Positions 1 through 57 of a stretch of 30,887 nt of DNA are shown piece after piece. Both the position numbers and the translations under genes were made by a program. The stretch is from Escherichia coli. GTDB taxonomy: Bacteria; Pseudomonadota; Gammaproteobacteria; Enterobacterales; Enterobacteriaceae. Positions within the stretch are counted from its first letter, which is position 1, and every line of letters begins with the position of its first letter. The DNA lies in NCBI RefSeq assembly GCF_003334765.1, contig NZ_QOWT01000041.1; one strand, written 5' to 3'. The notes beneath the pieces are model-generated. The model made no database searches and was not told where the DNA came from. It saw only the letters and a program-made list of their open reading frames with translations.

Positions 1-57
1 TTTCTCTTCAACCGAACCGGCTGTTTGTGTGAAGTGATTCACATCCGCCGTGTCGAT

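Follow-up and report, generated by a model that had tools for sequence, protein, structure and literature searches.

The perfect CRP-type palindrome located just downstream of the rrnE P1 start site of E. coli is, in our tentative judgement, most likely the apex of a hairpin in the leader RNA of the rrnE and rrnH P1 transcripts, of which rrnD would carry a one-base variant. This reading, which comes from predicted folds and modelled alignments, has the apical stem-loop UGUGAA-UCAC-UUCACA capping a three-tier hairpin that extends over ~47 nt from the 5′ end of the P1 transcript. The hairpin would form co-transcriptionally when ~50 nt have been made and would bury the 5′ triphosphate end; the buried end would then shield nascent pre-rRNA from 5′-end-dependent attack by RNase E/RppH and, possibly, from Rho loading too, until the boxA antitermination complex has formed, downstream of P2. 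That the stem coincides with a CRP core would be secondary: cAMP-CRP can probably bind the duplex in vitro at moderate affinity, but such binding would not be what selection maintains. The palindrome itself is a real conserved element under purifying selection.

The window, by which we mean the whole stretch of 30,887 nucleotides that was analysed, comes from the divergent rrnE-purHD region of E. coli, on the purH side; it starts within the rrnE P1-P2 spacer and continues into purHD. The preliminary description had placed a leftward rrn P1 promoter here, and this assignment is correct: the start determined by Cappable-seq coincides with window position 57 (Table 1). The rrnE P2 start determined by the same method (4205994 in U00096.2) is 108 nt downstream of that of P1. 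A scan of positions 1-420 for σ70 promoters returned zero calls, missing even rrnE P1, and is thus no evidence for or against a reverse promoter. In the Cappable-seq rows listed in PMC4782308, P1 of rrnD, rrnE and rrnH is represented by 22,268-28,075 reads versus 284-6,734 in the listed rrnB, rrnC and rrnG rows, and P2 reads are alike among the listed rrn rows (5,189-10,714). This gap in P1 read counts could come from multi-mapping of reads, or the two leader families may truly differ in 5′-end recovery.

The palindrome is the only 10/10 match to TGTGA-N6-TCACA in the 30,887 bases, a core with the 6-bp spacer just as had been described; dinucleotide shuffles contain on average 0.01 such matches per window. 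The runners-up carry two mismatches in the window as a whole and three in the purH-rrnE intergenic region, of which TGTGAAGTGATTCACA is by far the best CRP match. About four perfect cores per genome are expected by chance (4.6 Mb × 4^-10, uniform composition), in agreement with the few per genome estimated earlier, and perfection alone is therefore not decisive. The rRNA-sense strand of the palindrome reads TGTGAATCACTTCACA and corresponds to positions +15 to +30 of the rrnE P1 transcript; the earlier placement downstream of P1 and before P2 holds, and its offset of +14 to +29 is to be corrected by one nucleotide. The centre is at +22.5 relative to P1 and at −86.5 relative to P2. From the end of the palindrome to the purH start codon (ATG, 388) there are 345 bp, close to the "about 350 bp" given before. 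A literature string search with the exact 16-mer, on both strands, found no paper.

Table 1. Positions of the features discussed, in window coordinates except where other loci are named
Feature	Position	Strand	Remarks
Predicted 5′-terminal hairpin of the P1 transcript	11-57	−	+1 to +47; three-tier
Hairpin basal helix AUCGA/UCGGU	57-53 with 15-11	−	predicted fold
Hairpin middle helix CGGC/GCCG	50-47 with 21-18	−	predicted fold
Hairpin apical helix UGUGAA/UUCACA, loop UCAC	43-38 with 33-28	−	predicted fold; same as the palindrome
Full 22-bp CRP-type site TTG-TGTGA-AGTGAT-TCACA-TCC	25-46	no strand	centre 35.5
CRP-type palindrome TGTGAAGTGATTCACA	28-43	no strand	perfect core; NC_000913.3 4207877-4207892
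rrnE P1 start (+1, A)	57	−	9 nt downstream of TATAAT; Cappable-seq 4205886 in U00096.2
rrnE P1 core promoter	58-93	−	from sequence and alignment to the other six rrn P1 promoters
rrnE P1 discriminator GCGCCTCC	65-58	−	part of the P1 core promoter
rrnE P1 -10 element TATAAT	71-66	−	16-nt spacer to the -35 element
rrnE P1 -35 element TTGCGG	93-88	−	part of the P1 core promoter
Hypothetical reverse -10-like hexamer CATTAT	65-70	+	complement of P1 ATAATG; inferred only
purHD promoter context: PurR-box-like GCGCAAACGTTTTCGT (265-280), then TACAAT (281-286)	265-286	+	from sequence
RF02849 sub-threshold matches	L003 495-726; L004 403-650; L006 185-427; L009 435-688		rrn P1/P2 promoter-leader

The rrnE leader from +1 to +57 is predicted to fold with a minimum free energy of −16.4 kcal/mol (z-score −2.27). 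In ten divergent leaders, a 5′-terminal hairpin was predicted in every one, with z-scores from −0.4 to −4.7, nine of them between −1.7 and −4.7. Pairing begins at +1 or +2 in 64 of the 73 distinct 50-nt leaders among the matches listed, versus 36% of shuffles. A hairpin of the same shape is built in rrnD from GUUG/CAAC and CGAC/GUCG, and in rrnB from CUGAC/GUCAG together with an apical CGGC/GCCG stem and a related A/C-rich loop; like hairpins are predicted in the leaders of Aeromonas, Vibrio, Pantoea, Photorhabdus, Dickeya and others. The two strands are about equally stable when folded (−14.4 kcal/mol for the sense and −14.7 for the antisense strand), and G-U content does not tell them apart either; the strand of the hairpin was therefore assigned by its anchoring at +1, energetics giving no preference. 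The z-scores are modest. Nor do the folding calculations establish which strand matters, or that it is the RNA rather than the DNA.

In all P1 leader families sampled (from the seven operons of E. coli, from other Enterobacterales, and from Aeromonas, Vibrio and a genome of the BD1-7 clade; loci L003-L129), the first 38-50 nt are foldable; the hairpins start at +1/+2 and their stems are family-specific. A literature search found no paper describing a P1 leader hairpin, nor its structure probing, half-life or stability.

A covariance model was created from the E/D-type leaders and used to realign 43 loci among the matches listed. In this alignment, which leans toward the structure on which the model was built, the outer helices contain double compensatory changes in four of nine pairs (AU>GC, CG>UA, GC>AU and CG>AU), 11 cells are changed on both sides as against 4.3 in shuffles (0 of 500 shuffles reach 11), and the covariation score is 0.114 versus 0.087 in shuffles (1/500), with slid controls lower. 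The apical helix of the same alignment has a compensatory change in none of its six pairs, and its core pairs (GC, UA, GC and AU) are essentially invariant. RNAalifold applied to a plain MAFFT alignment detected a 4-bp apex only and no covariation; the outer covariation was missed there because the 3′ arms were misaligned, which is why realignment with the covariance model was needed. The apex (GTGAAnnACTTCAC) is conserved in sequence and does not covary, which implies an extra sequence-specific constraint, acting at the level of RNA or of DNA. A purely structural constraint does not predict the invariance of GTGA/TCAC; it would be expected if a sequence-specific factor bound there, CRP being the most obvious one.

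The preliminary description had proposed conservation across the seven rrn operons and across Enterobacteriaceae as a check. Among the seven operons of K-12 the palindrome is conserved in part: the 16-mer is identical in rrnH, rrnD contains CGTGAAACACTTCACA with a 9/10 core, and rrnA, rrnB, rrnC and rrnG lack it, an unrelated spacer taking its place. Every one of the 5,426 complete E. coli genomes contains nucleotides 1-77 of the window, in ~2 copies; in 5,360 of 5,432 E. coli records the best copy has an identity of 99% or more. Diversity here is low, so that conservation within the E. coli population says little about selection.

We next consider other species, which were scanned with the P1 core CCCTATAATGCGCCTCC as a query using one genome per species; at least 120 loci were retrieved. 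Among the matches listed, an "ATCGAC/GTTGAG" leader family (the E/H/D type) can be told from an "ACTGAC" family (the B type). E/H/D-type leaders with the palindrome or its 9/10 form were found, among these matches, in Escherichia albertii, several Citrobacter and Enterobacter, Superficieibacter, an isolate labelled as Klebsiella, and Serratia oryzae, with Acerihabitans at 9/10; in Yersinia, uguGagCAAcuuCACa stands at the homologous place in the consensus of the Rfam model Ysr197. The half-sites are thus kept across several genera of Enterobacterales, and non-conservation in close relatives, which was to have counted against the palindrome, was not observed. Mean pairwise identity among the matches listed is 0.89 and 0.92 for the half-sites, 0.78 for the spacer, and 0.60 and 0.49 for the flanks, compared with 0.85 for the P2 core promoter. 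GTGA and TCAC are invariant in 26 distinct sequences among these matches, the flanking arms of which are 49-60% identical, and E. coli and S. oryzae share 16 of 16 bases with flanks less than 50% identical. The element is therefore more than chance, being conserved across genera while its flanks diverge. Its centre is at +22.5 relative to P1 in 29 of the 34 copies among the matches listed (+21.5 in four and +20.5 in one), but all values between −80.5 and −86.5 occur relative to P2, so that there is no fixed helical phase across species.

Activation of P2 by CRP in a class I arrangement was considered and rejected. Class I sites are centred near −61.5, −71.5, −82.5 or −92.5. The palindrome at −86.5 falls between the active faces, and in other species the distance ranges from −80.5 to −86.5; with a phase that is unsuitable and also varies between species, class I action at P2 is unlikely.

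Leaders that differ at the apex are also found. Enterobacter sp. Bisph1 (L020) and Acerihabitans (L071/L072) have lost TGTGA/TCACA and retain the hairpin at the same place; in the E-type leaders L020 and L071 it is formed from other stem sequences. Other operons of the same genomes keep the CRP-like apex, and these loci are in effect natural "stem-swap" variants.

To describe how CRP-like the palindrome is, we used a symmetrised position weight matrix derived from the 107 16-mers of an enterotoxigenic E. coli (ETEC) CRP ChIP-seq table (Haycocks 2015, Table 1). With 13.5 bits, the palindrome outscores 60 of the 107 bound sites (the lac site scores 14.4), and by this matrix is a predicted CRP site of medium strength. 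Its six spacer positions, on the other hand, score below those of all 107 bound sites: A at position 6 and T at position 11 are each present in 7% of them, and the eight bound sites with a perfect core all read TGTGAT, so the preferred TGTGAT...ATCACA flank is not matched. All 21 operon/species entries among the matches listed have GTGA at positions 2-5, TCAC at positions 12-15 and, in the spacer, AC at positions 9-10, a pair that is asymmetric with respect to the strands; A6 is shared by 20 of the entries and T11 by 19, and variation is seen at the outer core positions 1 and 16. As can be seen, the conserved unit is GTGAAnnACTTCAC, a stem of 5-6 bp with an nnAC tetraloop that lies one base inward of the CRP core. 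Such conservation is not quite what a symmetric CRP dimer would be expected to preserve and would fit a stem and loop better.

The CRP occupancy that the preliminary description had looked to in ChIP-seq and ChIP-exo data was not found: the palindrome is in none of three genome-wide lists. It is absent from the 111 targets given with sequences in the ETEC ChIP-seq Table 1, which does contain lower-scoring sites, from the CRP genomic SELEX paper and its supplements, and from ChIP-exo supplements searched by gene name and coordinate; these absences are to be read with the caveats that ~100 bp are duplicated between rrnE and rrnH, that rrn regions are often filtered, and that such screens miss many known sites. 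The Ysr197 leader of Y. pseudotuberculosis, situated between gmhB and a 16S gene in the orthologue of rrnH, declines in stationary phase and does not differ significantly in a crp mutant (log2 values of −0.79, p 0.16, and −0.03 in the stationary-phase crp mutant). Reporter fusions to all seven E. coli rrn promoter regions have the same order of activity from LB to glycerol.

It had also been held that CRP control at this place was not something described before. This agrees with our literature search, which found no paper tying CRP to rrn P1, and has to be narrowed for the neighbouring purH, for which a CRP site was predicted and gel-shifted in 2023 according to the main text of PMC10199772. 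Taken as a whole, the interpretation of the palindrome as a CRP site is borne out in its location, promoter, core match and conservation, and is weakened by the overlap with the hairpin, the shifted conserved unit, the binding lists and the Yersinia crp data.

The main rival, that selection maintains a cAMP-CRP operator for P1 in E/H/D-type rRNA operons and that this operator overlies the hairpin, is possible but less probable; such an operator would affect three of the seven rRNA operons. In a steric version, CRP occupying +12 to +33 at high cAMP would bend the DNA that polymerase loads to ~+20 and lower initiation at P1, for which it counts that open complexes protect DNA to ~+20, according to published work, and that the palindrome, centred at +22.5, abuts the downstream edge of the P1 open complex. 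In a geometric version, CRP centred at −41.5 from a start served by CATTAT would recruit polymerase backwards, as at class II promoters, and occlude P1. The 16-mer and CATTAT are separated by 21 nt, the canonical class II spacing (CRP sites are commonest near −40.5), and the palindrome centre is at exactly −41.5 from a hypothetical reverse start near window position 77 (~4205866 in U00096.2; 4207843, minus strand, in NC_000913.3). In the Cappable-seq and Kim 2012 start-site listings, no reverse start is seen near this coordinate; as the listings do not cover every start site (that of Kim 2012 lacks even P1), the absence carries no weight. The perfect core and a matrix score near that of lac favour an operator, but A6 and T11, the inner positions, fit CRP less well than those of any bound site, and they have been conserved, not optimised. 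Half-sites as conserved across genera as the P2 core promoter, the full match between E. coli and S. oryzae despite diverged flanks, the fixed distance to P1 and the sequence invariance of the apical stem all speak for it as well, but a symmetric dimer leaves the invariant asymmetric AC unexplained. The gel shift of a predicted purH-associated site in the main text of PMC10199772 can be added in its favour, the palindrome being the best CRP match of the intergenic region; set against this are its absence from the ETEC ChIP-seq, genomic SELEX and ChIP-exo lists, the unchanged level of Yersinia Ysr197 in the stationary-phase crp mutant, and the single order of medium dependence that the seven rrn promoters keep from LB to glycerol. 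The bolder proposal that cAMP-CRP at +22.5 directly gates P1 of the rrnE/H/D type across Enterobacterales, either by blocking the open complex or through a reverse class II promoter, seems to us rather unlikely. Reading of GTGAAnnACTTCAC by another sequence-specific factor, such as a DNA-binding protein with a Cra-like operator of the TGAA-N4-TTCA type, or a protein or RNA partner of the apical stem-loop, is improbable. The position of the conserved unit one base inward of the CRP core, with its invariant asymmetric AC, and the conservation of the stem sequence while neighbouring helices covary would suit such a factor. The Cra (FruR) consensus is TGAATC-GATTCA, and operators of the LacI family typically have a central CG step. 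The inner 12-mer TGAATC-ACTTCA matches this consensus at 10 of 12 positions, but its centre, TC-AC, lacks the G of the CG step, and in the variants CAAC and TGAC the C is gone as well; for the apical stem-loop as RNA, we know of no candidate RNA-binding partner. By-eye comparison with the consensus sequences of Fis sites, σ70-dependent pause elements and LacI/Cra-type operators gave no fit, Cra being the nearest.

The gel-shift result also raises the view, implied by the 2023 CRPBSFinder paper, that the palindrome is a distal CRP site for divergent purHD, which we regard as highly improbable. According to the main text of PMC10199772, the predicted purH site is EMSA-positive, purH mRNA is ~2-fold higher in a crp deletion, and the rule for accepting sites takes those from −500 to +100 of the start, a range that includes the palindrome at ~−257; that text gives no sequence for the gel-shifted purH site, and the fragment may instead contain the weaker site at 228-243. 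Moreover, the same element is present in rrnH, where gmhB is upstream and co-directional, and in rrnD. It travels with the rrn leaders regardless of which gene adjoins them, keeping its distance from P1, and regulation of purHD from ~−257 is for this reason unlikely; −257 fits no known CRP activation or repression geometry, and an indirect effect could account for the 2-fold change in the crp mutant. Least credible of all is a functionless chance match that persists solely through gene conversion between rrn operons. The ~4 perfect cores expected per genome count for chance, as does the fact that the rrnE and rrnH copies are not independent, 77 nt being identical; but the element is conserved in Enterobacteriaceae and Yersiniaceae, and at 9/10 in Acerihabitans, with diverged flanks.

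On the purH side, several further sequences were noted. The palindrome is ~257 bp upstream of the presumed purHD promoter, where GCGCAAACGTTTTCGT matches the PurR consensus, ACGCAAACGTTTGCGT, at 14 of 16 positions. Between this PurR-box promoter and the ATG at 388, the purH 5′ leader contains a 38-bp near-perfect palindrome, GCGTTAGCTGAGTTTTTCGCG/CGCGAAAAATTCAGCTAACGC (95% complementary), at 318-355, with a small GC hairpin (306-319) just before it. A 16-bp palindrome, AATTGTGATCACCATT, at 225-240, ~55-70 bp upstream of the presumed purH start, contains a TGTGA half-site. Positions 228-243 differ from the CRP core at three positions and could be the "purH CRP site" whose gel shift appears in the main text of PMC10199772.

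Known systems can be compared with both the DNA and the RNA reading. The palindrome shares the TGTGA-N6-TCACA core with class II CRP promoters of the galP1 and melR type and has its centre 41.5 bp from the predicted start on the opposite strand. At the crp gene, a CRP site downstream of the crp promoter reportedly activates a divergent overlapping promoter; the palindrome is likewise downstream of the start of the promoter that would be repressed. In contrast to these systems, it has inner bases unfavourable for CRP, is absent from the binding lists and lies inside a conserved RNA hairpin, and the reverse promoter is hypothetical.

For the hairpin apex, the reading that we prefer, the closest likeness is to 5′-terminal stabilising stem-loops of the ompA type, which are said to occur on primary transcripts of E. 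coli. The P1 hairpin resembles them in its helix starting at +1/+2, its conserved structure and its compensatory outer helices. It differs in that it sits on a pre-rRNA leader removed by RNase III and in that its apex is conserved without covariation; a role in stability is here a prediction. The rrn boxB hairpin is found at the 5′ end of P2 transcripts as part of the antitermination leader. Like the P1 hairpin, it lies near the start of an rrn transcript, is found in every operon and has operon-specific stems; however, boxB adjoins boxA and belongs to Nus-dependent antitermination, whereas the P1 hairpin is ~100 nt upstream, has no adjacent boxA and is carried by P1 transcripts only.

The Rfam family RF02849 (Ysr197, "Yersinia sRNA 197") spans approximately from −69 of P1 to +54 of P2, and it is here that uguGagCAAcuuCACa takes the place of the palindrome. 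Its model scores rrnE at 117, rrnH at 145, rrnD at 90.5 and rrnB at 78 bits, below the gathering score of 167; the E. coli rrn regions are homologous to RF02849 but are not curated members of the family. The family covers promoter DNA as well as leader, so that its consensus structure is not a model of the P1 hairpin. In Y. pseudotuberculosis Ysr197 lies between gmhB and a 16S gene, and the "sRNA" therefore looks like a fragment of rrn leader plus promoter DNA.

rRNA promoters belong to the best-studied promoters of bacteria, yet nearly all mechanistic work on them has used rrnB P1, which is without the palindrome. Should CRP be active at this site, a direct input of carbon status, beyond ppGpp/DksA, NTP sensing and Fis, would reach three of the seven rRNA operons of E. 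coli; this would be a concrete mechanism for operon-specific rRNA expression and a direct wire from catabolite signalling to rRNA synthesis, one that would have been missed for forty years because work concentrated on rrnB P1. If CRP does not act, the palindrome is a caution that a perfect and deeply conserved CRP core can persist for another reason. The finding also brings out a general feature of which literature searches found no description, namely that gamma-proteobacterial rrn P1 leaders are predicted to begin with a conserved 5′-terminal hairpin, whose apex, in one leader family, is under a sequence constraint that pairing does not explain.
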